From: Methanocaldococcus jannaschii DSM 2661
GTDB taxonomy: Archaea; AGJL01; Methanococci; Methanococcales; Methanocaldococcaceae
Assembly: GCF_000091665.1 (NCBI RefSeq)
Contig: NC_000909.1
Coordinates: forward strand, 706,049 to 730,710
Reading direction: 5' to 3'
Length of the DNA stretch: 24,662 bases
A model generated the notes under the pieces. That model saw nothing but the letters and a program-made list of their open reading frames with translations, was not told the DNA's origin and did not search any database. Positions 9,127-16,734 of this stretch are shown piece after piece. Numbering within the stretch: position 1 is the stretch's first letter; the number at the start of each line of letters is the position of its first letter. The position numbers and the translations under genes were made by a program.

Positions 9127-9395
9127 TATTTCACCAATGCATTTTAATCGTGTTTAAATAATATTGATTATGTTATATTTCATTTTTTGATATAAAATTA
9201 TAAAATAGTTAAAAATAATTTACTTTTTTAAAGTTATAATTGTTTTATTATTAAAAATTCTAATAAGTTAAAAATTTTAACATATATAATTTACTATTTA
9301 ACTTTAAATCATAATATATATAGAGGTTTTGTATTATTACATTTGTGAAAAATGTGGAAAATAATAGGGGCACCATACAAAAAATTAAAGAATAG

Positions 9396-9430
9396 TTGGC
9401 GATGACGCTCCCTATATGGAGCTGAGCCAG
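9396..9430 (+). promoter_or_regulatory. Kink-turn (box C/D-like) hairpin in the leader of the 9462 gene. Alternatively a stand-alone small RNA
   Basis: C-stem TTGGC (9396-9400) pairs with GCCAG (9426-9430). Next comes a 3-nt bulge GAU (9401-9403). Tandem G04/A25 and A05/G24 pairs follow, then C06/U23. The second stem is GCTCC (9407-9411) with GGAGC (9418-9422), closed by hexaloop CTATAT. The strands read GCGAUGA (box C-like) and CUGA (box D). Confidence 0.5.
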
Positions 9431-9441
9431 TGCCTACACAA

Positions 9442-9457
9442 CCACCTTAAGAGGTGG
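9442..9457 (+). promoter_or_regulatory. Hairpin CCACCT-TAAG-AGGTGG that sequesters the Shine-Dalgarno sequence of the 9462 gene
   Basis: Perfect 6-bp stem. The 3' arm AGGTGG is the SD, and its last base is 4 nt from ATG 9462. Confidence 0.45.
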
Positions 9458-9461
9458 CAAT

Positions 9462-9731
9462 ATGAAATTTTTAGAGAAGGGAGTATATAAGATTTTTGGG
9501 GCAGTGATTTTAGTAAGTATGATAGGGGCTTTAGTGGCTGAGCCAATAGCTTTGGGAGATGCTGGATTGTATTATCAATACTATGTAGGAGATATTGATA
9601 CAGCTCAGCAGTGTTATCTTGTAGCTGCGGATTCAGCTATTACTGGAGCGGCTATTTCTGCTGCATTAGGTCCTGCAGGATTGGCTTCTGGAGTATTTAC
9701 TGTTGTGTTTAGTACTACGGTATTAGCTTAA
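9462..9731 (+). CDS. Small (89 aa) secreted or membrane-anchored Gly/Ala-rich hydrophobic protein
   Basis: Strong SD GAGGTGG. Sec-like N-terminus (MKFLEKGVYK, then IFGAVILVSMIGALVA, then EP). The C-terminal half is Gly/Ala/Ser-rich and hydrophobic (AITGAAISAALGPAGLASGVFTVVFSTTVLA). Followed by T-rich tracts (9737-9750). Confidence 0.55.
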   Translation: MKFLEKGVYKIFGAVILVSMIGALVAEPIALGDAGLYYQYYVGDIDTAQQCYLVAADSAITGAAISAALGPAGLASGVFTVVFSTTVLA

Positions 9732-9799
9732 AAATGTTTTTCTTTTTTAATTTTAATAATTTTTTGATATTTTTTAGGTGATATAATGGGTGATAATAC

Positions 9800-10288
9800 A
9801 TGAACTTTGAAAAGAAATTAAATGGTATATTGTCTTTCACTTATTTAGCGTTGGTCTTATGTTTGGTTATGCCTTTCATGCTTATACTTGTACTTGATAC
9901 TACATTTACATTTAATAAATTTAATTTGAATTTTGTATATCGCCAGATAGTAGAATTGATTGTTTTATCTATATTTGCTGGGTTTATTACATCATTTGCT
10001 CTTTATAATAAAATATGTAGGATATCTACTGAAGAATTAAAAAGAGATATATTAGAGAATAATGGATTAAAAACTATATTTAAAATTGCACAATACGAAG
10101 TGATGGTTTCGATATTCTATTCGTTATTATTACTGATTATATTATTAAATAAGCAATTATTATATTATGGTTTTACTGCTATATTTCAGATTTTCTTTAC
10201 ATTCTGTGCAATTTTTGTACCTTTATTTATCTTTGGTTCATTAGTATGTAGGACAATATTATTACATAAAATAAGAGGTACTACTTAG
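9800..10288 (+). CDS. Polytopic membrane protein, function unknown
   Basis: 162 aa with about 4 hydrophobic helices. GGTGAT SD at 9789-9794. Confidence 0.5.
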   Translation: MNFEKKLNGILSFTYLALVLCLVMPFMLILVLDTTFTFNKFNLNFVYRQIVELIVLSIFAGFITSFALYNKICRISTEELKRDILENNGLKTIFKIAQYEVMVSIFYSLLLLIILLNKQLLYYGFTAIFQIFFTFCAIFVPLFIFGSLVCRTILLHKIRGTT

Positions 10289-10348
10289 AACACTATACTA
10301 TACAATAATGATGATAAAATAAATAATAACTTTAACAATTGTGAAACC

Positions 10349-10885
10349 ATGAAAATACCAATAATCTTAACTCTAATGCTCTTCTCATTGGGTTTTATTT
10401 TTGGATTTATCTCAATAAACAACTTATCAAAAATTAACGATAAGGATTTATCCAACTATATACCCAATATACAGTTTAACTTTCCTTCAATATTAACAAA
10501 CAACTTAAAAGTTATCTTCCTAATGTTGGCTGGTTCTATAACTTTTGGATTATCTACTTTTATAAATCTAATATTCAACGGTTTTAATGTTGGTGTCTTA
10601 ATTGGTTCTATTTCCCTAACTAACGAACCGTTAAAATTAATAACCGCTTTAATTCTTCCACACGGAATATTCGAAATCTCAGCAATGTTAATATCAGCAG
10701 TAGCAGGTTTTAAAATTCCTTACAAAGTAACTCTCTACTTATTAGATAAAAAAGAAAAACCACTTACAGAAGAAGATATTAAGGACTTTTTAAAATTATC
10801 TCTAATTTCAATAATTCTAATCGTTATAGCCGCTTTTATTGAAGTTTATATCACTCCAAAGATAGCCACTTATCTACTAACGTAA
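10349..10885 (+). CDS. SpoIIM/DUF95-family membrane protein
   Basis: LPHGIFEISAMLISAVAGFKI matches the conserved PHGxxExxA motif of the stage II sporulation protein M-like (DUF95, COG1300) family. About 4-5 TM helices. Confidence 0.65.
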   Translation: MKIPIILTLMLFSLGFIFGFISINNLSKINDKDLSNYIPNIQFNFPSILTNNLKVIFLMLAGSITFGLSTFINLIFNGFNVGVLIGSISLTNEPLKLITALILPHGIFEISAMLISAVAGFKIPYKVTLYLLDKKEKPLTEEDIKDFLKLSLISIILIVIAAFIEVYITPKIATYLLT

Positions 10886-10942
10886 GATTTAAATAGTTGA
10901 AGTAACAAATACAATCATTGAAAAATCTAATAGGTGATACTA

Positions 10943-11359
10943 ATGAATTTAATAGAAGCTTTAACAAATCCAGACACTTTCTTCAAAAAACTCTCTCAAA
11001 AAGAAATCTCTCTAAAAGAACCATTTTTAATTGTTTTAATCTTTTCCATATTGATAGCAATTTCTGCCTACATATCAACTTCAATTATATACAAAATCTT
11101 TCCTCCACAGTATCAGCAAGTATTGGCATTTACCAAGATTATTGCGTTAATATCCACATTTATTGGTGGAATTGTTGCATGGTTAATTATAGCTGGATTT
11201 ATGCATCTCATTTCAATGATATTCAAAGGAGAAGGAAGCTTTAAGAAAACATTATCCTTTACTGGCTATGGATTCCTTCCAAATATAGTTGGAGCTTTAA
11301 TAACAATACCTATTGCCTATTATATGCGAGAAATCTCACAACAAGAAATGCGTTTATAA
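10943..11359 (+). CDS. Yip1-domain membrane protein, apparently frameshifted near its 3' end (C-terminal helix continues in another frame to 11424)
   Basis: The N-terminal LIEALTNPDTFFKKL followed by multiple TM helices is typical of Yip1/DUF1282 proteins. ATG 10943 is preceded by GGTGAT (10933-10938); the ORF track begins at GTG 10934. The frame starting at 11359 encodes TALIPTVIFGLYQLYSVLKLL* (to 11424), a plausible missing last helix. Confidence 0.55.
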   Translation: MNLIEALTNPDTFFKKLSQKEISLKEPFLIVLIFSILIAISAYISTSIIYKIFPPQYQQVLAFTKIIALISTFIGGIVAWLIIAGFMHLISMIFKGEGSFKKTLSFTGYGFLPNIVGALITIPIAYYMREISQQEMRL

Positions 11360-11438
11360 CTGCACTAATTCCAACAGTTATATTTGGTTTGTATCAACTA
11401 TACAGTGTATTAAAGTTACTATAAAATGAGGGAAAAAG

Positions 11439-12953
11439 ATGAAGAGATTAAAAAACTTATTTATCATCTTTATCTTCCTATTTCTTTTATCTCAGGTTTC
11501 TGCCTATATAACCTTCAAAAATATTGATTATAACGCTCAATACTTGGAGCCATCTAAAACCTATGATTTATATATAACAATAGAATCAGACAAAGAAATC
11601 AATAATACAGTTGTATATATAGAACCAACAAATCAAATATCCAAAGAAAACATAGAGATTATTAGAGGAAAGCAATGGATTGGACATCTTTTTCCTTATG
11701 AGTATGGTGTAGCTCACTTAATAATAAAAATAAATCCTAATGCACCAAATTATGATTATAAGATAACAGGTTATTGCAACTATACAAAAGGTAATCAGCA
11801 ATATTCTGAAAATAGAATTTTTACCCTTCCAGTGAGAGGAAAGGCAAACTTAGTTATAGAAACCACTAATAATATACTAAAAGTTGGTAATAATCAAATT
11901 CTCTTACTATTGACAAATAAAGGAACAGGAACTGCTGAAAATATAAAAATAGAATTTCAAAACTCGAATAATTTAATGGTTTTAGGAGATAATACTTTCA
12001 CAATATCTGCCTTGGGTTCAAAGACATCTACATACATTCCACTAACTATCTTTGCCAAAAAAGAAGGAGTTTATTCTATAAATTACAAAATATCTTACAA
12101 GAACCCTTATAATTTGTTGGAATTAACCCAAAAATCAGAGACAATAGAAGGGGACTCAAAAACAGAGACCTTAACGTATCAAAATAAAAACATAGTTGAA
12201 GAAACTGGAATTTTAACCTTCAATGTATTCCCAAATGAGTTAATTTCAATAAATATAAAAAACCCAACTATTACAGTTGGAAAGATAGAAAATCTAACAA
12301 TTTCAATAAAAAATAATTATAAAGATTCTTTATTTGTTGTTCAAATAAGTAAATACTTTATTGGAAATAACCAAAAATCTATATTCATCAAAAAAGGAGA
12401 GACAAAAAATCTAACTTTCCAAATAAAAGTAGATAAAGAGGGAGTTACTTCAATTCCTATAGTTATATATTTCGATAACAATCAGATTGAGAAAAATCTA
12501 ACAATAAATGTTGTAGGAAAGGCAGATTTGGTTTTAAGTGGGATTGATATAGAAAGTTCATTTAACGAAATAAAGATAACTGGAGATATTGACAACATTG
12601 GAACTGGAAAGGCAAAGAGCGTCTTAATCTCAATAGAAAAAACAAAAAACATCATTCCAAAAAAGCCGTATGAAAACTACTTCGTTGGAACATTAAATCC
12701 AGATGATTATGGTAGTTTTGAACTGCACTGCCAAATTAATGGAAATGTAAATGAAATTCCACTTAAAATAAGCTATAGAGATGAAGATAACAACCTAATA
12801 ACCATATATAAAACAGTAAAAATCAGTAAAGAAGTGGTTTCCTTAAAGACTAATAATAATGGAGGAATTAATTATTTAGTTGTTGGAATAGCTATATTGT
12901 TCTGTGTTGGAGTAGTTTATTTAATTTATAGGGGATTCGTAAAGAAAAAGTGA
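11439..12953 (+). CDS. Surface-anchored protein with repeated CARDB/S-layer-like beta-sandwich domains (COG1361-like)
   Basis: Signal peptide MKRLKNLFIIFIFLFLLSQVSA. Recurrent N-x-G-x-G-x-A motifs (LTNKGTGTAENIKIEF, DNIGTGKAKSVLISI). C-terminal TM helix LVVGIAILFCVGVVYLIY with a basic tail RGFVKKK. GAGGGA SD. Confidence 0.7.
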   Translation: MKRLKNLFIIFIFLFLLSQVSAYITFKNIDYNAQYLEPSKTYDLYITIESDKEINNTVVYIEPTNQISKENIEIIRGKQWIGHLFPYEYGVAHLIIKINPNAPNYDYKITGYCNYTKGNQQYSENRIFTLPVRGKANLVIETTNNILKVGNNQILLLLTNKGTGTAENIKIEFQNSNNLMVLGDNTFTISALGSKTSTYIPLTIFAKKEGVYSINYKISYKNPYNLLELTQKSETIEGDSKTETLTYQNKNIVEETGILTFNVFPNELISINIKNPTITVGKIENLTISIKNNYKDSLFVVQISKYFIGNNQKSIFIKKGETKNLTFQIKVDKEGVTSIPIVIYFDNNQIEKNLTINVVGKADLVLSGIDIESSFNEIKITGDIDNIGTGKAKSVLISIEKTKNIIPKKPYENYFVGTLNPDDYGSFELHCQINGNVNEIPLKISYRDEDNNLITIYKTVKISKEVVSLKTNNNGGINYLVVGIAILFCVGVVYLIYRGFVKKK

Positions 12954-12957
12954 TATT

Positions 12958-13470
12958 ATGAAAGGAATAAATCCATTTTATTTTTATATTGGAATGGCTT
13001 TAATACTCGCGTCAATCGTATCCATACTTTTAATTACTAAATCAATACTGCTATTTATACTGCTGGCTTTTGGAAGTTTAGTAGGAATTACTTTAATTTT
13101 AATCTATATCTCAAGAAAAATATTAAAGATAGATAAAGGACGGCTTAAAAAAGAAGTTAAGAGAATATTTGGAAATAGAGTTTATAAAATTTTAAGATTA
13201 ATGTTAGTTTTAGGATATGCTGGATTTATATACTTCTCTGGGACTTTTTATAACAGTGCAGTTTTATTTTTTATATTTATAGTGGCATTTACAATTTCTG
13301 AGTTTTATAAAACCTATAGGATAAGAATCTACGAAAAAGGGATATTGATTGAGGGTATTGCATTTTATAGCTGGGAAGAGATTGAAAAAACAACTAATAA
13401 GGACAAAAATCAAACAATATTAAAAATTAAAGGCATTCCTAAGAAAATAGTAATTAACGAAATAATTTAA
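12958..13470 (+). CDS. Membrane protein with a C-terminal PH-like domain, paralog 2 of 3
   Basis: Four hydrophobic helices. The C-terminus IYEKGILIEGIAFYSWEEIEKTTNKDKNQTILKIKG aligns with the C-termini of the ORFs at 3382 and 20935. Confidence 0.6.
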   Translation: MKGINPFYFYIGMALILASIVSILLITKSILLFILLAFGSLVGITLILIYISRKILKIDKGRLKKEVKRIFGNRVYKILRLMLVLGYAGFIYFSGTFYNSAVLFFIFIVAFTISEFYKTYRIRIYEKGILIEGIAFYSWEEIEKTTNKDKNQTILKIKGIPKKIVINEII

Positions 13471-13489
13471 AAATTCTTAGGGGGAATTT

Positions 13490-14197
13490 ATGATTAAACT
13501 CAAAAATGTAACAAAAACATACAAAATGGGAGAAGAAATTATTTATGCTCTAAAAAATGTAAATCTGAATATAAAAGAGGGAGAGTTTGTTTCGATTATG
13601 GGTCCTTCTGGCAGTGGAAAATCAACAATGTTAAATATTATTGGCTGTTTAGACAAACCAACAGAGGGAGAGGTTTATATTGATAATATAAAGACCAATG
13701 ACTTAGATGATGATGAATTAACAAAAATTAGAAGAGATAAAATTGGTTTTGTCTTTCAGCAATTCAACTTAATTCCTTTATTAACTGCCTTAGAAAATGT
13801 TGAACTTCCACTGATTTTTAAATATAGGGGAGCAATGAGCGGAGAAGAGAGGAGGAAGAGAGCTTTAGAATGCTTAAAGATGGCAGAGTTGGAGGAGAGA
13901 TTTGCCAATCACAAACCAAATCAGTTGAGTGGAGGGCAACAACAGAGAGTTGCTATAGCGAGGGCTTTGGCAAACAACCCACCAATTATATTGGCGGATG
14001 AGCCAACTGGAGCATTAGATAGCAAAACAGGAGAAAAGATAATGCAATTATTAAAAAAATTAAATGAAGAGGATGGAAAAACCGTTGTTGTTGTTACCCA
14101 TGATATAAATGTTGCGAGATTTGGAGAGAGAATAATTTATTTAAAAGATGGAGAGGTTGAGAGGGAAGAAAAATTGAGGGGATTTGATGATAGATAA
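13490..14197 (+). CDS. ABC transporter ATP-binding protein, LolD/MacB type (recognised as MJ0796)
   Basis: Walker A GPSGSGKST, Q-loop, signature LSGGQQQRVAIARAL, Walker B ILADEPTGALD and H-loop VTHD are all present. The full sequence is recalled as the crystallised MJ0796 ATPase. Confidence 0.95.
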   Translation: MIKLKNVTKTYKMGEEIIYALKNVNLNIKEGEFVSIMGPSGSGKSTMLNIIGCLDKPTEGEVYIDNIKTNDLDDDELTKIRRDKIGFVFQQFNLIPLLTALENVELPLIFKYRGAMSGEERRKRALECLKMAELEERFANHKPNQLSGGQQQRVAIARALANNPPIILADEPTGALDSKTGEKIMQLLKKLNEEDGKTVVVVTHDINVARFGERIIYLKDGEVEREEKLRGFDDR

Positions 14198-14597
14198 CAT
14201 CTCAAACTTCGATAAAGTTAGAGCAGTTGTAGTAGCGATATTGTTGTATATTTTTATAATTTTGGTTGTAGATGGAAGCATTTCTTCTTTAATTGGAAAA
14301 TATATAACTTATCCGAGTGATGAATATCATATTATAGAGTTTTATGATTTTATCCATATTATTGGTTTTCTCTTATCTTTATCAATTTCGACATATTTTT
14401 CGTCAAAAGATATTATTAAGGATTTTGCAAAATTTTTCACTATATTCTTTGGAATTACCTTTATTTTAGGAATCACGTTATTTTTGGGCTTAACATTTTT
14501 TGAAAATCACATCCCAAGCATGAGAGGTTATACGACATTAATGTTATTCTTCTTTCTTTTAAATCTTTTTAAGAAGTTGGATAAAATAACAAATTAA
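14187..14597 (+). CDS. Small 4-TM membrane protein wedged between the ABC ATPase and its permease
   Basis: ATG 14187 overlaps the 3' end of the ATPase gene by 11 nt, with a GAGGGG SD at 14176-14181. Hydrophobic throughout. I recognise no family. Confidence 0.5.
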   Translation: MIDNISNFDKVRAVVVAILLYIFIILVVDGSISSLIGKYITYPSDEYHIIEFYDFIHIIGFLLSLSISTYFSSKDIIKDFAKFFTIFFGITFILGITLFLGLTFFENHIPSMRGYTTLMLFFFLLNLFKKLDKITN

Positions 14598-14609
14598 ATA
14601 AGTGAGAGT

Positions 14610-15713
14610 ATGTATTTTGAATTAGCAAAGAGAAATTTAAAAAGAAATTTGTTAAGAAGTATTTTAGCTTTATTGGGGATTATAATAGGGGTTGCGGCAA
14701 TATCTTCTTTGGGAATATTAGGAGGAGGATTAAAACAAGGAATTATGGAAAATTTGGGGAGCATATCTAACTATATAATTGTTTTTCCAAATTATCAAAA
14801 TGGTTATACTTCTTTTGATAAAAGAGATATTGAAAAACTGAGAGTTTTAAATTGCAAAGTTATTCCAGTTTATGCTACTTCTGATTTTGTTTATATAAAA
14901 GGAAAGAATAGAAAAGCATACGCAAACATCTTCGGCATTGATAAAAATGACATAAAATACTTAAATTTGAAAGTGAAGGTTTCTGACACTTCTGTTGCTG
15001 TTGATACGTTCTTTTCTAATGTTAATGATGTTAATGTTGGAAATCAATTGGAGATTAAAAATATCTCATTGAGGATATGTGGGATTTATAACAGCACATT
15101 TTTATTCCCAGATAATTCTTTAATTTTAACGGCAAAAACATACAGAAGGTTTTATGGAGAAAATAATTACAATTATTCAAGAATAATCCTCTATGTTAAA
15201 AATATAAATGATATTGATAAAATAAAAAATGAAACAGATAAAATTTTAAACAGAAAAGAGAAAAAATGCATAATAATATCTTTAAACTCTATATTGGAGG
15301 CGATTAACGGAGTTATAACTAAGGTTTCTTACTTTTTAATGGGTATTGGAGCTATTTCATTGTTAGTTGCTGGTATTGGAATTGGAAATGTTATGTTGAT
15401 GAGTGTTGTTGAAAGAACAACGGAAATTGGAGTTATGAGAAGCATTGGAGCATCAAAAAAGGACATTATAATTTTATTCCTTTATGAAGCGTTGATATTG
15501 GGAGTTATTGGCTCTTTAATTGGGGCATTTTTGAGTTTATTCTTTGGGTATTTGATTGTTCATTATCTGTTAAAAACTTCACTGTCTTATTATGCAATCT
15601 TCTATATGATAATTGGCATAATATTTGGAATTTTAACATCTCTGATTTCAGCATTATATCCAGCATATAAAGCATCAAAATTAGACCCAATAAAGTCATT
15701 GAGAAATGAATAA
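14610..15713 (+). CDS. FtsX/MacB-type ABC transporter permease
   Basis: N-terminal TM helix, an extracytoplasmic domain of about 200 aa, then a C-terminal 3-TM FtsX domain with GIGNVMLMSVVERTTEIGVMRSIGASKKDI and the terminal YPAYKASKLDPIKSLR motif. Confidence 0.9.
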   Translation: MYFELAKRNLKRNLLRSILALLGIIIGVAAISSLGILGGGLKQGIMENLGSISNYIIVFPNYQNGYTSFDKRDIEKLRVLNCKVIPVYATSDFVYIKGKNRKAYANIFGIDKNDIKYLNLKVKVSDTSVAVDTFFSNVNDVNVGNQLEIKNISLRICGIYNSTFLFPDNSLILTAKTYRRFYGENNYNYSRIILYVKNINDIDKIKNETDKILNRKEKKCIIISLNSILEAINGVITKVSYFLMGIGAISLLVAGIGIGNVMLMSVVERTTEIGVMRSIGASKKDIIILFLYEALILGVIGSLIGAFLSLFFGYLIVHYLLKTSLSYYAIFYMIIGIIFGILTSLISALYPAYKASKLDPIKSLRNE

Positions 15714-15729
15714 TAAATAATAATAAATT

Positions 15730-16734
15730 ATGGCGATTAAAATGGACAAAAACTTCACATTAGAAATTTTAAACTTATTGAAAAATAATGTTTTAAAAAA
15801 TAGGTTAAAGATTGGGAAAGAACTTACAGAAATGCTTATTGATGAGATTGATAAGCTAATAGAAACTGCTAATGAAATTTCAGAAGAAATATCAAAAAAT
15901 AGTCCAAATAATTCGAGTTTGTATGATTTAAGGTTGATATATAATAAGTTATCAACTCTTTATGAAGATATTGATAAATTATTGGGTGAAATAGAGTGTA
16001 TTTTAAGTTTAAGCAATAAAGATATTAAAAACTGGAAACTTTGGAAAAACCTTGGAGATAAAGCATATCTATGGAAAGCTTATTATGAAGCATTATTTTG
16101 TTACAACAAAGCATTAGAGTTAAATCAAAATACAGAACTTCTATGTAAAAAGGGCTATGCTTTATTAAAACTATATAAAAGAGATTTAGCAATAAAATAT
16201 TTTGAAAAGGCATCGGAAAAAGATAGAAATAACTATAAAGCACTTTTTGGATTGGGAAAGAGCTATTATTTAATGAGTGATAATAAAAATTCAATAAAAT
16301 ACTTTGAAAAAGTTTTAGAATTAAATCCAAATGATGTAGAAGCATTGGAATATTTGGGAGAGTTATATTATGAAGAAGATTGTGAAAAAGCGATAAACTA
16401 CTTTAAAAAAGCTTTAGAATTAAAACCAGATGATATTGATTTAATTTTAAAAGTTGCCTTTACATACTTCAAATTGAAGAAATATAAACATGCACTAAAA
16501 TATTTTGAGAAAGCTTTAAAATTAAATCCAAATGTGTTTGAATTAGAACAGATTTATGAATCTATGGGAAGAATATACATTTATTTAGGAGAAGATGAGA
16601 AAGCAATAGAATGTTTTGAAAAATTAAAGGAAATAAACCTTTATCATTATGAAATATATGAAATTATTGCTTTAACTTATGAAGAGGTTGGAAATATTGA
16701 AAAAGCTAAAGAATTTTATAAAAAGTTGGTGTGA
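15730..16734 (+). CDS. TPR-repeat protein with an N-terminal coiled-coil region
   Basis: At least 6 TPR-like units (e.g. AYYEALFCYNKALELNQN, SIKYFEKVLELNPNDVEAL, AINYFKKALELKPDD, ALKYFEKALKLNPN). The stop overlaps the next gene (GTGA). Confidence 0.8.
   Translation: MAIKMDKNFTLEILNLLKNNVLKNRLKIGKELTEMLIDEIDKLIETANEISEEISKNSPNNSSLYDLRLIYNKLSTLYEDIDKLLGEIECILSLSNKDIKNWKLWKNLGDKAYLWKAYYEALFCYNKALELNQNTELLCKKGYALLKLYKRDLAIKYFEKASEKDRNNYKALFGLGKSYYLMSDNKNSIKYFEKVLELNPNDVEALEYLGELYYEEDCEKAINYFKKALELKPDDIDLILKVAFTYFKLKKYKHALKYFEKALKLNPNVFELEQIYESMGRIYIYLGEDEKAIECFEKLKEINLYHYEIYEIIALTYEEVGNIEKAKEFYKKLV

Follow-up and report, generated by a model that had tools for sequence, protein, structure and literature searches.

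What do the nine genes MJ0792, MJ0792.1, MJ0793, MJ0794, MJ0795, MJ0795.1, MJ0796, MJ0796.1 and MJ0797 of Methanocaldococcus jannaschii, all of which carry an uncharacterized annotation in public records, do together? They lie head-to-tail on the + strand of the window, i.e., the 24,662-nt stretch of DNA that was analyzed. A sequence-only reading had located all nine correctly, but its upper limit of about 70 nt for the gaps between them did not hold; in array order, the gaps are 68, 60, 48–57, 79, 4, 19, –14/–11 (overlap) and 12 nt. It had suggested a single module, serving either the export of, or immunity to, a small peptide, or the assembly or remodelling of a surface protein; this interpretation was partly supported, comparative evidence favouring the first option. 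At a probability of roughly 0.55, the array combines a peptide production/immunity cassette with a four-component MacB pump that has a CARDB protein in the adaptor slot. As a whole, MJ0792–MJ0797 looks like an archaeal counterpart of bacterial circular-bacteriocin loci.

Gene order and its recurrence in archaea

Four Methanococcales genera have the array order in a total of about ten loci (the window, L001, L003–L006, L008, L096, L097 and, in part, L095), and it is partly kept in Archaeoglobi. Conservation extends well beyond the ATPase-permease pair, and the synteny is far beyond chance. Cassettes have multiplied in tandem in M. aeolicus (four copies), L018 (three) and L005 (three). The same neighbourhood had already been described in 2014/2015 under other interpretations (PMC4158269, PMC5898192).

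In bacteria, DUF95/SpoIIM is the class-defining protein of gene clusters that encode bacteriocins cyclized head to tail (PMC8659200, PMC6131525, PMC13289728), which comprise a precursor, DUF95/SpoIIM, a transporter and a small cationic immunity protein (PMC8659200 sect. 2.5; PMC6131525; PMC13289728), and often Yip1 (PMC8659200; PMC6131525; PMC13289728). MacB-type accessory pumps of the As-48EFGH and YknWXYZ kind are likewise frequent in these clusters (PMC5985334, PMC4887032). The window array contains every part of this grammar in one row; unlike the bacterial clusters, it is without their indispensable dedicated ATPase/permease pair. The DUF95/SpoIIM hallmark, the four-component immunity pumps that join Yip1 to MacB, and the earlier descriptions of the neighbourhood had all escaped the sequence-only reading. 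We propose a bacteriocin-type conflict locus of two parts, a production cassette (approximately 9290–10885) and a pump (10943–15713).

A small precursor-like protein and its expression signals

MJ0792 (9462..9731, + strand), an 89-aa precursor-like protein, had only 26 relatives in a search of 1.84 billion representative proteins. It is a real gene, conserved as a coding sequence; its leader is conserved and its tail variable. The near-invariant, Sec-like leader (residues 1–33; 9462–9560) ends in E-P-I-A-L-G-D, the motif conserved across relatives being P-x-A-L-G-D. The hypervariable core (residues 34–89; 9561–9728) consists of 56 acidic, Gly/Ala-rich residues with a hydrophobic C-terminus and no Lys or Arg (pI 4.05, GRAVY 0.88). 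Mean pairwise identity is 49% for SpoIIM, 35% for the leader, 29% for the core and 24% for the next gene. Methanococcales and Archaeoglobi have core types in common, under lineage-specific leaders.

Archaeal cores range from 51 to 78 aa, with pI values of about 4–4.7, GRAVY 0.7–1.5 and a G+A content of 32–48%; the verified cores of group ii, those of acidocin B and plantacyclin B21AG, have 58 aa, GRAVY 1.0 and 34–43% G+A (PMC6131525 Table 1). In its size and composition, though not in its sequence, the MJ0792 core resembles group ii circular bacteriocins. Precursors show G(–2) and D/N(–1) before, and A/V/I/L(+1) after, the predicted cleavage site, and end in a hydrophobic or aromatic residue, in agreement with the long-leader rule (–2 small, –1 charged, +1 hydrophobic; PMC13463998). 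The profile comparison with bacteriocin families envisaged by the sequence-only reading was carried out; neither MJ0792 nor the other precursors matched these families or solved circular bacteriocins by sequence or profile (Pfam, PDB, hhalign). An AF2 model of MJ0792 has three helices, but is only moderately confident (pLDDT 68), and a fold search with it was uninformative. Judged by leader, composition and cleavage site, MJ0792 fits a bacteriocin-type precursor, whose core of about 56 residues would be the putative toxic payload. Alternatively, the leader might serve as a signal anchor that stays uncleaved; MJ0792 would then be a 3-TM membrane protein, in line with the proposal in PMC5898192.

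In several leaders, the hydrophobic stretch is immediately preceded by KG or RG (e.g., MKLNLLKG followed by FAAVAM, or FRG followed by LAIAM), reminiscent of the class III signal of type IV pilins, in which [KR]G precedes a hydrophobic helix; a prepilin peptidase would process such subunits, which would then build a surface fibre. We consider this highly improbable, as a pilus ATPase, a PilC-like platform and a prepilin peptidase were found in none of the loci, the most conserved motif, P-x-A-L-G-D, comes after the hydrophobic helix rather than before it, the C-terminal parts, instead of being globular, are hydrophobic, short and rich in Gly/Ala, and the M. jannaschii type has Lys at +3.

The structured leader and T-rich tracts noted around MJ0792 in the sequence-only reading were borne out. 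An A/T-rich promoter-like block, TTTACTATTTAA..TTTAAAT..ATATATATAG (9290..9335, + strand), presumably a TATA/BRE promoter, could be aligned with, and is kept in, 9 other loci, where it likewise lies upstream of precursor genes of the Methanocaldococcus type. Within the 5' leader, a K-turn hairpin (9398..9428, + strand) is composed of a C-stem GGC/GCC, a 3-nt bulge GAU, tandem G.A/A.G pairs, 3b.3n C.U, an NC stem GCUCC/GGAGC and a 6-nt loop, and is reproduced by the MFE fold. Scanning the window and 95 loci with the regular expression GG[CT]GATGA..[GT]GAGCC gave 29 matches (one of them inside the window), 29/29 on the + strand and at a distance of 30–70 nt upstream from the start of a precursor gene. 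In Methanococcales, a perfect K-turn hairpin lies 5' of each precursor gene checked for it, and oligo-T tracts come after most of these genes. The NC stem shows compensatory changes at two pairs, and 98% of cells are paired, as compared to 19–45% in slid controls. In Rfam, the sole match was to the box C/D ends of sR49, at 15 bits vs a cutoff of 50. The hairpin would be expected to bind L7Ae.

A second hairpin, CCACCU-UAAG-AGGUGG (9442..9457, + strand), uses the Shine-Dalgarno sequence as its 3' arm, at a distance of 4 nt from the ATG that follows; its helix is 82% paired over 10 leaders, in an alignment less certain than that of the K-turn. Downstream of the precursor stop, the sequence reads as oligo-T tracts T5, T6, T4, T6 and T6 (9737..9775, + strand). 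T runs of at least five within 50 nt follow the precursor stop in 31/37 cassettes, vs 8/37 after the next gene. Transcription termination at oligo-T is established in archaea, and the tracts resemble a terminator- or attenuator-like element. MJ0792 would be driven by a strongly signalled unit consisting of the promoter-like block, the K-turn hairpin and the Shine-Dalgarno-sequestering hairpin, with the oligo-T tracts raising the ratio of precursor to downstream expression.

The SpoIIM protein and the variable partner gene

MJ0793 (178 aa, arCOG01996; 10349..10885, + strand) is a SpoIIM/DUF95 protein (Pfam PF01944, E = 7e-34) and contains the PHGIFEISA motif, as the sequence-only reading had it. 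Against the sporulation SpoIIM equivalog it scored 43 bits, under the cutoff of 100. A profile of archaeal SpoIIM proteins retrieved a textbook bacterial circular-bacteriocin cluster (L049); residues N52, N77, H105, E109, G120, A161 and E165 are invariant in archaeal, bacteriocin-cluster and sporulation members, and in the family comparison the archaeal cassette proteins are not demonstrably nearer to bacteriocin-linked than to sporulation members. Other roles within the SpoIIM family are sporulation and the housekeeping function of arCOG01994. An AF2 model of MJ0793 has 5 helices and no fold match in the PDB. By analogy, MJ0793 is a candidate membrane protein for leader processing or maturation. 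Acting on the outer face of the membrane, it would cut off the leader at the G-D site and set the core free, perhaps cyclizing it head to tail; this role has been proposed for the DUF95 proteins of bacterial circular bacteriocins.

Slot 2 is occupied by MJ0792.1 (162 aa, 4–5 TM, pI 9.3; 9800..10288, + strand), a candidate cognate immunity or maturation partner, the immunity-like behaviour of which had been overlooked. Across cassettes, slot-2 proteins are small and cationic with 2–5 TM, and mostly unrelated (mean identity 24%, while SpoIIM keeps 49%). Homology appears where the core type is shared, as between the window and L093 (31%, E 4e-9) and, across orders, between L095 and L018 and between L097 and L009. 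Among pairs of the 37 cassettes, core and next gene are both similar in 4, the core only in 14, the next gene only in 1, and neither in 647 (Fisher p = 1.9e-6, the pairs not being phylogenetically independent). This co-variation suggests a toxin-immunity pair, in which MJ0792.1 would be the immunity protein travelling with its core type. It is incomplete, as 14 core-similar pairs lack detectable next-gene similarity.

From the same neighbourhoods, PMC5898192 had proposed a stable integral membrane complex for membrane remodelling or vesicle formation, built from SpoIIM-like proteins, Yip1-like proteins and small, fast-evolving proteins with 3 TM, to which the ABC transporter and the S-layer-like protein would add associated envelope functions. 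Vesicle formation involves Yip1 in yeast, engulfment involves SpoIIM in B. subtilis, the three long helices modelled for MJ0792 could be TM segments, and the cassette SpoIIM keeps the invariant residues common to aligned sporulation and housekeeping members. Such a complex nevertheless seems quite unlikely to us, as it leaves unexplained the hypervariable cores beneath conserved leaders, the core types that are common across orders together with a matching partner gene, the tandem multiplication of cassettes, the acidic "TM" regions without K/R, and the dedicated high-expression signals of the small gene alone; moreover, the housekeeping function is assigned to another paralogue, arCOG01994.

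Hypervariability and horizontal exchange suit any conflict system, and the cassettes reside in variable "dark matter" islands beside toxin-antitoxin and restriction-modification genes and AAA ATPases. "Novel membrane-associated defense systems" have been proposed for such neighbourhoods (PMC4158269), and the variable small proteins might stay in the producer's membrane for virus exclusion or kin recognition rather than act as a secreted toxin. We regard this as unlikely: the array is without a nucleic-acid-targeting effector, none of the membrane proteins had a PADLOC match, such matches being confined to the generic ABC ATPase and the FtsX/LolE-type TM domain, and the leader/cleavage motif, the group ii-like core composition and the linkage to a MacB peptide pump (PMC5985334) point to an exported peptide.

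The proposed MacB-type pump

The pump genes of the proposed bacteriocin-type locus begin with MJ0794 (10943..11424, + strand; likely start ATG at 10943), for which a Yip1-like assignment held (Pfam PF04893, E = 8e-24; NCBIfam YknW_fam 2e-12, under the family cutoff); the gene is not intact, which had gone unnoticed. A tblastn search with the 217-aa M. vulcanius orthologue found residues 1–127 in one frame (10943–11323) and residues 174–217 in another (11290–11421), indicating an internal deletion of about 46 residues plus a frameshift. What remains is a 138-aa product (10943–11359), with the C-terminal 44 residues readable out of frame (11290–11421). As MJ0794 is broken in M. jannaschii, the locus may be partly decayed there.

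MJ0795 (504 aa; 11439..12953, + strand) has the features of the predicted surface protein, with an N-terminal signal peptide, a CARDB/Ig-like ectodomain and a C-terminal TM anchor followed by a KKK tail; a single CARDB domain lies above threshold (PF07705, 25.2 bits vs a cutoff of 22.7, E 2e-5). Its homologues in a word-based search, named "COG1361 S-layer family", are confined to Methanococcales. The idea that the module assembles or remodels this protein gained no support; MJ0795 occupies the place of the extracellular adaptor in YknWXYZ and As-48EFGH pumps. MJ0795.1 (170-aa membrane protein; 12958..13470, + strand), formerly called PH-like, had no Pfam match even at E <= 10. It was found only in L003 and L085, among the closest relatives; in other genomes this variable slot is empty or holds unrelated genes, and MJ0795.1 is not a core component.

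MJ0796 (13490..14197, + strand) was rightly recognized as a MacB/LolD-type ABC ATPase (ABC_tran). It is identical to PDB 1F3O, 1L2T and 3TIF, the next PDB matches being MacB-family NBDs, and matches the NCBIfam MacB, DarD, LolD and lactococcin-972 ABC models, all under their equivalog cutoffs. The permease MJ0797 (14610..15713, + strand) matches MacB_PCD (1.4e-16) and FtsX (8e-22) in Pfam, as anticipated. Between them, overlapping the ATPase stop, lies MJ0796.1 (136/137 aa, 4 TM; 14187..14597, + strand), indeed atypical for MacB operons and also a conserved, Methanococcales-specific component. It is conserved in the same position in L001, L003 and L006 and absent in L004, L008, L034 and L042; Methanotorris, Methanothermococcus and M. 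aeolicus have there a 281–309-aa 8-TM protein, to each half of which MJ0796.1 is homologous.

Is the pump linked to the cassette at all? It might be that in Methanococcales the CARDB-MacB transporter happens to lie beside an independent precursor-SpoIIM(-Yip1) cassette, and that the pump either provides resistance to antimicrobial peptides in general or handles the CARDB surface protein. ABC genes are absent near most Archaeoglobi cassettes, Archaeoglobus L042 has CARDB-NBD-permease (an adjacency also found in L034) beside a SpoIIM fragment only, the slot between CARDB and ATPase is variable, and the oligo-T tracts that follow the precursor gene point to multiple transcripts. On the other hand, adjacency and order are kept in four Methanococcales genera and L034 despite heavy turnover around them, and the Yip1 gene, always at the cassette/pump junction, is common to bacterial circular-bacteriocin clusters and MacB four-component pumps (PMC8659200, PMC4887032). 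Chance adjacency appears decidedly improbable.

About ten Methanococcales loci keep these genes in the order Yip1-CARDB-NBD-permease. In bacteria, YknW (Yip1) with adaptor, NBD and MacB permease protects against the SDP peptide, and As-48EFGH confers immunity to cyclic AS-48 (PMC5985334, PMC4887032). We propose a four-component pump of this kind, made up of Yip1 (broken here), the CARDB ectoprotein, MJ0796 and MJ0797, with MJ0796.1 as an extra, lineage-specific membrane subunit. A TPR protein (TPR Pfam matches) at the MJ0798 position (15730..16734, + strand), 16 nt downstream, is possibly associated with the array; in M. igneus, a TPR gene is found within the array, between CARDB and ATPase, and in L001 and L003 only fragments are left. 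By mechanotransmission, the pump would drive the hydrophobic peptide out of the outer leaflet, for export and/or self-protection. If true, this would provide MJ0796, a much-studied ATPase, with a biological role.

Gene order and its conservation

The sequence-only reading had suggested that nine co-directional genes could form one module, with export of, or immunity to, a small peptide among the options. All nine ORFs are present on the plus strand between positions 9462 and 15713 of the window, corresponding to MJ0792, MJ0792.1, MJ0793, MJ0794, MJ0795, MJ0795.1, MJ0796, MJ0796.1 and MJ0797. Public records annotate every one of them as "uncharacterized"; the SpoIIM-like protein and the M. jannaschii entry share 100% identity, and profile searches assigned no family to four products (89, 162, 170 and 137 aa). 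Our preferred reading of the array is that it combines production of a peptide, immunity to it and a pump, to which we assign a probability of about 55%.

For comparison of gene order, genomes were scanned by means of a SpoIIM profile; the 80 loci obtained were supplemented by single-protein look-ups, and the nine window proteins were mapped onto all loci. The order n × [small protein – small membrane protein – SpoIIM] – Yip1 – CARDB – (variable slot) – ATPase – (membrane gene) – permease is conserved in relatives, a comparison that had been suggested as a check on the module: it occurs in M. vulcanius, M. indicus, Methanocaldococcus sp. 28A and several Methanocaldococcus MAGs, and also in Methanothermococcus, Methanotorris igneus and Methanococcus aeolicus, the last with four cassettes in tandem. 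An uncultured archaeon (L034) has SpoIIM, CARDB, ATPase and permease, and in an Archaeoglobus locus (L042) CARDB, ATPase and permease adjoin a SpoIIM fragment. Most Archaeoglobi carry a smaller, frequently repeated unit, in which a Yip1 gene on the opposite strand is followed by the small protein, the small membrane protein and SpoIIM; ABC genes are absent from the vicinity of most of these cassettes.

Some neighbours of the cassettes are of a different kind. In M. igneus, a HicA toxin (Pfam) and a 70-aa partner are encoded directly beside the cassette (L097, 4380–4827), and small cytoplasmic gene pairs that by eye look like toxin-antitoxin modules adjoin Archaeoglobi cassettes (L011, 10684–11106; L014, 10531–10731; L018, 10542–11114 and 13069–13715). 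Such pairs are in keeping with variable genomic islands. Short contigs from MAG bins labelled Arcobacter, Bacteroidales, Desulfurellaceae and Cyclobacteriaceae (L009, L010, L019 and L030) carry cassettes as well, with SpoIIM matches 41–49% identical to the query and, on L009, L019 and L030, Archaeoglobi-type leaders. These contigs are probably mis-binned archaeal DNA from vent metagenomes, the alternative being transfer to bacteria.

The neighbourhood as such has been known since Makarova et al. (2014, 2015; PMC4158269, PMC5898192). These papers describe cassettes of arCOG01996 (DUF95), arCOG02054 (Yip1) and arCOG09673 (the small proteins, taken as membrane proteins with three TM helices) in Archaeoglobi, Methanococci and Thermococci, accompanied by an ABC transporter of the SalXY type and by S-layer-like proteins, and interpret them first as a membrane-associated defence system and later as a remodelling or vesicle complex. 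Their type cassette from M. vulcanius (Metvu_0322/0323/0325) corresponds to our orthologous locus L001, and MJ0792 is homologous to both Metvu_0325 and Metvu_0328. PADLOC, searched for known anti-phage defence systems, left the membrane components unmatched and returned only a generic ABC ATPase and an FtsX/LolE-type TM domain match.

Precursor, SpoIIM-like protein and slot-2 partner

Relatives of MJ0792 are rare (26 among 1.84 billion representative proteins). Residues 1–33 (MKFLEKGVYKIFGAVVLVSMIGALVAEPxAxGD) are almost invariant among them and the remainder is hypervariable, dividing the window precursor into a leader of 33 aa and a core of 56 aa. A second leader type of the Methanococcales reads MKLNLLKGFAAVAMLCMIGAVFATPVALGD, and that of the Archaeoglobi ..W-N-E-E-V-x-K-W-L-A-V-x-M-C-L-A-M-x-G-M-A-V-M-P-A-V-G-V-G-D; common to all three is a plan of a polar start, a hydrophobic stretch of ~17–20 residues, a proline and a small-x-G-[D/N] end. 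The cassettes were compiled as 24 strict triplets of precursor, slot-2 gene (at the position of MJ0792.1) and SpoIIM gene, and as 37 cassettes recognized by leader motif. The cores following G-D comprise 51–78 residues with a pI of about 4–4.7, a GRAVY of 0.7–1.5 and 32–48% Gly+Ala, are nearly devoid of Lys and Arg, and end in hydrophobic residues without a terminal charge. In size and composition they match verified cores of group ii circular bacteriocins: those of acidocin B and plantacyclin B21AG, verified from the PDB, have 58 residues, a GRAVY of 1.0 and 34–43% Gly+Ala. The junction of leader and core, with G at –2, D or N at –1 and A, V, I or L at +1, fits the rule for circular bacteriocins with long leaders (small residue at –2, often charged at –1, hydrophobic at +1, and a hydrophobic or aromatic residue or Ala at the end; PMC13463998). 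It is just as possible that a cut of the signal-peptidase type falls one residue before this, at A-x-G|D.

Pfam and NCBIfam searches with the 89-aa MJ0792 returned nothing relating it to known bacteriocins, and Pfam at E ≤ 10 gave no match to a circular-bacteriocin family (e.g., PF12173, BacteriocIIc_cy) for 27 precursors. Likewise, a PDB profile search retrieved nothing relevant, and hhalign of the precursor against that of gassericin A gave a probability of 0.05. The AF2 model of MJ0792 consists of three helices (pLDDT 68), for which Foldseek found only generic helical hairpins in the PDB (E > 1). Because there is neither sequence homology nor an informative fold match, the resemblance to bacteriocin precursors is one of architecture and composition, and common ancestry is not demonstrated. 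A pilin-like role of the small proteins was considered and rejected.

Some precursors, one in M. aeolicus (L096, 770–1153) and one in L088 (713–1114), combine the standard leader with long (about 95 aa), polar, Lys-rich cores that end in ..SGLYW and are not rich in Gly and Ala, so that payloads of more than one kind go with this leader. In their terminal Trp, these cores recall AS-48-type precursors such as that of Aeribacillus (..AISW).

MJ0793 (10349–10885) belongs to PF01944 (SpoIIM/DUF95; 7.1e-34, 117.5 bits, cutoff 26.9). Identity with the sporulation protein SpoIIM of the DMP engulfment complex was rejected, since the score against the equivalog TIGR02831 is 43 bits (cutoff 100.2) and since archaea have no homologues of SpoIID and SpoIIP, as stated in PMC5898192. 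The archaeal SpoIIM profile retrieved a textbook bacterial cluster for a circular bacteriocin in Aeribacillus (L049), which comprises a precursor of 108 aa whose leader is hydrophobic, a large membrane protein, an ATPase, a DUF95 protein and a small protein with three TM helices. In the alignment, residues N52, N77, H105, E109, G120, A161 and E165 of SpoIIM do not vary, whether the member comes from an archaeal cassette, is bacteriocin-linked or acts in sporulation, which suggests a common active or binding site without singling out the bacteriocin subgroup; the His/Glu/Glu set within the TM helices may mark a catalytic or metal site. The AF2 model of MJ0793 had no similar solved structure.

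Mean pairwise identities among 21 cassettes are 49% for SpoIIM, 35% for the leader, 29% for the core and 24% for the product of the slot-2 gene. Slot-2 proteins have 52–194 aa and two to five TM helices and are cationic (pI 8–10, mostly 9–10); for MJ0792.1, Pfam at E ≤ 10 gave nothing. Core types recur under differing, lineage-specific leaders, and the slot-2 gene goes with the core. The window pair MJ0792/MJ0792.1 and its counterpart in L093 share 38% identity in the core and 31% in slot 2 (E = 4e-9). For L095 of the Methanococcales and L018 of Archaeoglobus, the cores match with E = 1e-12 and the slot-2 proteins with 39% identity (E = 4e-9), and for M. igneus (L097) and L009, which has an Archaeoglobi-type leader, the values are 63% for the core and 30% for slot 2 (E = 6e-7). 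Correlation of core, slot 2 and SpoIIM by global alignment was too noisy with these low-complexity sequences, and the contingency counts were based on BLAST instead. Among the 666 pairs formed by 37 cassettes, four are similar in both core and slot 2, 14 in the core only, one in slot 2 only and 647 in neither (Fisher p = 1.9e-6, the pairs being phylogenetically non-independent). As judged from these comparisons, the association of core and slot 2 is real, albeit incomplete, and is evidence for regarding the two proteins as a candidate toxin-immunity pair.

A K-turn in the precursor mRNA leader

Every Methanococcales precursor gene examined is preceded by an A/T-rich promoter-like block, a K-turn hairpin and a hairpin containing the Shine-Dalgarno sequence. 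In the window, the conserved promoter-like block lies at about 9290–9335, the K-turn hairpin (GGC-GAU-GA-CGCUCC-loop-GGAGC-U-GA-GCC) at 9398–9428 and the second hairpin at 9442–9457. By the published definition (PMC6298567; pattern in the window GGC-GAU-GA-C..U-GA-GCC), the first hairpin is a standard K-turn of the Kt-7 or box C/D type, with a C helix, a 3-nt GAU bulge, tandem trans G:A and A:G pairs and an NC helix, the latter with compensatory changes in two of its pairs. Position 3b is C or 3n is G, and –1b:–1n is C:G; like Kt-7 or box C/D, the K-turn is therefore predicted to need no protein for folding (PMC6298567). A simple K-turn pattern had 29 matches over all sequence examined, each just upstream of a precursor gene; the 28 copies besides that of the window occur in L001–L008 and L082–L090. 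In M. vulcanius, L003 and L085, two K-turn hairpins stand in tandem. The hairpin was not found in the precursor leaders of Archaeoglobi.

Rfam at gathering thresholds gave nothing for the whole window, and its E-value mode matched only the terminal C and D boxes of sR49 in the leader (15.4 bits, cutoff 50). A box C/D methylation-guide sRNA was rejected on account of this score, the length of 31 nt and the absence of guides. By analogy with l7ae mRNAs (PMC5539422, PMC6298567), we infer that the K-turn binds L7Ae and acts in translation control or mRNA stability. The known element, an L7Ae-binding K-turn, is located in the 5' UTR of archaeal l7ae mRNAs (Daume 2017; Huang, Ashraf, Lilley 2019); the precursor leaders differ in that the Shine-Dalgarno sequence is placed in a separate downstream hairpin and that the gene under putative control encodes a peptide precursor rather than L7Ae.

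Oligo-T runs follow the precursor stop codon in 31 of the 37 cassettes and the slot-2 gene in eight. The runs behind the precursor fit attenuation downstream of a structural gene with high expression. One MAG has an MJ0792 orthologue of 95% identity (L002, 2223–2893); in it, the standard K-turn leader precedes a degenerate MKFLEKG.. start, and the intact orthologue starts with METGNG.. behind a different, GC-rich leader, an arrangement that looks like a recombination scar at the leader.

The candidate pump genes and their proposed function

MJ0794 (10943–11424) matches Pfam Yip1 (E = 8e-24), which bears out its designation as Yip1-like, and scores 47 bits against YknW_fam (cutoff 110); as a gene, however, it is broken in M. 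jannaschii. It aligns with the 217-aa orthologue of M. vulcanius over residues 1–127 in one frame and over 174–217 in another, which indicates an internal deletion of about 46 residues and a frameshift. The gene is intact in relatives (215–217 aa); RefSeq labels the 138-aa remnant "Yip1 family protein". The 504-aa MJ0795 has one above-threshold CARDB domain, a signal peptide and a C-terminal anchor, and a search for its homologues reached Methanococcales only. No product of the array matched a family of membrane-fusion (HlyD/MacA-type) adaptors, and the CARDB ectoprotein occupies that position.

The description of MJ0795.1 (12958–13470) as PH-like found no support, Pfam at E ≤ 10 being empty. 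The gene is restricted to the closest relatives, and elsewhere unrelated genes fill the slot between CARDB and ATPase. In M. vulcanius (L001, 13601–15085) these are the genes of a 175-aa protein and a very acidic 88-aa protein, possibly a toxin/immunity pair, and a second Yip1 gene; in M. igneus, they encode a TPR protein and a 104-aa membrane protein. The MacB/LolD-type ATPase MJ0796 is identical in sequence to the MJ0796 of the PDB, its best further PDB relatives being NBDs of the MacB family, and the permease MJ0797 consists of a MacB_PCD periplasmic core and an FtsX TM domain. The position of the membrane gene within the transporter, pointed out in the sequence-only reading, is conserved in relatives; its product MJ0796.1, for which Pfam at E ≤ 10 gave nothing, is one half of a duplicated protein with eight TM helices in other Methanococcales genera. 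Lipoprotein release of the Lol type was rejected on the grounds of scores below the LolD and LolCE cutoffs and the lack of an outer membrane in archaea. A TPR protein encoded at 15730–16734, 16 nt behind the permease gene, has its M. igneus counterpart within the array (L097, 8654–9664); L001 and L003 contain fragments only. This TPR protein may be a member of the module.

Bacterial clusters that make bacteriocins cyclized head-to-tail encode a precursor, a SpoIIM/DUF95 protein, one or more transporter proteins and a small cationic hydrophobic immunity protein, with Yip1 as a frequent extra, especially near a three-gene accessory ABC set (PMC8659200, PMC6131525, PMC13289728). To judge from its gene products, the window has the same parts and logic as such clusters with an accessory pump, a CARDB ectoprotein standing in the adaptor position. 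With the group ii clusters of Firmicutes (gassericin A gaaBCADITE, acidocin B, plantaricyclin A, butyrivibriocin AR10) it shares a small precursor, whose long leader is hydrophobic (22–33 residues in the published table), and a very hydrophobic, Gly/Ala-rich core of about 58 aa with low to neutral pI, as well as DUF95/SpoIIM, small cationic multi-TM proteins and an ABC ATPase and permease in one row (PMC6131525). In contrast to them, the archaeal locus resides in a hyperthermophilic host and shows no detectable precursor homology, its leader ends in a conserved P-x-A-L-G-[DN], its mRNA leader contains a K-turn, and its DUF95 gene has no adjoining dedicated production ATPase. The sole transporter is a MacB-type pair, corresponding to the accessory As-48GH type, and is accompanied by the CARDB ectoprotein. 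For the archaeal peptides, cyclization is a candidate property.

The four-component MacB-type systems As-48EFGH of Enterococcus and YknWXYZ of Bacillus consist of a 4-TM or Yip1 protein (YknW being a Yip1-family accessory protein with 4–5 TM helices), an extracytoplasmic adaptor, an NBD and a MacB-like permease. Both are tied to a membrane-active peptide from which they protect, cyclic AS-48 in the case of As-48EFGH and the SDP peptide in that of YknWXYZ (PMC5985334, PMC4887032). The array similarly co-encodes an accessory protein, an extracytoplasmic partner and a MacB-type NBD and permease. Its adaptor position, however, is taken by the CARDB/Ig-like, C-terminally anchored protein with signal peptide rather than by a membrane-fusion/HlyD protein, an extra gene for a 4-TM (or duplicated 8-TM) protein lies between NBD and permease, and Yip1 is disrupted in M. 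jannaschii.

According to the production, immunity and pump reading, the leader would insert the precursor into the membrane with the core on the outside, and DUF95 would cut at G-D, freeing and perhaps cyclizing the core. The slot-2 protein would shield the producer, and a pump of Yip1, CARDB, MJ0796, MJ0796.1 and MJ0797 would expel the peptide from the outer leaflet by mechanotransmission of the MacB type. The main weaknesses of this reading are precursors without homology to known families, the want of a dedicated production ATPase, the absence of the pump from most Archaeoglobi cassettes and the broken Yip1 of M. jannaschii. Actual cyclization of the core appears doubtful, with a probability of one in four or slightly more.

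A still bolder and rather improbable reading, that of "circular archaeocins", takes all elements together: hyperthermophilic archaea (Methanococcales and Archaeoglobi) would make membrane-active peptides that are cyclized head-to-tail or otherwise matured by DUF95, from a minimal cassette that lacks a dedicated ATPase and is made up of the precursor, its cognate immunity protein, DUF95 and Yip1. Archaeal orders sharing hydrothermal vents would swap toxin-immunity pairs and re-fit them with lineage-specific leaders, precursor synthesis in Methanococcales would be controlled or stabilised via an L7Ae-bound K-turn in the mRNA leader, and the MJ0796/MJ0797 MacB pump with its CARDB adaptor would serve self-protection and export.

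The searchable literature contains no mention of the MJ0792–MJ0797 tags and ties DUF95 or circular bacteriocins to Methanocaldococcus or Archaeoglobus only in the two papers by Makarova et al., whose available parts contain neither a circular-bacteriocin link nor the leader/core split at G-D, the cross-order co-variation of core and partner, or the K-turn leader. As far as that literature shows, leaving out a 2019 mBio survey of archaeal antimicrobial peptides, the identification with the grammar of circular-bacteriocin clusters, the leader and cleavage motif, the cross-order core-partner pairs and the K-turn leader are new.

If the proposal is true, the array would represent the first archaeal relative of circular-bacteriocin systems and the first candidate class of peptide antimicrobials for hydrothermal-vent methanogens and Archaeoglobi. 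To our knowledge, the antimicrobial peptides known from archaea comprise little beyond halocins, sulfolobicins and lanthipeptides. MJ0796, the structural model ATPase of the ABC-transporter mechanism, would find its place in a peptide-handling MacB pump. How DUF95 acts in cleaving the leader and in cyclization has long been a problem, for which the archaeal cassette, thermostable and free of a dedicated ATPase, would offer a simpler study system. The co-travelling pairs of core and membrane protein suggest real inter-order traffic in conflict genes, and mRNAs with the K-turn leader would possibly form a natural class of their own, new among the K-turn-bearing mRNAs other than l7ae.
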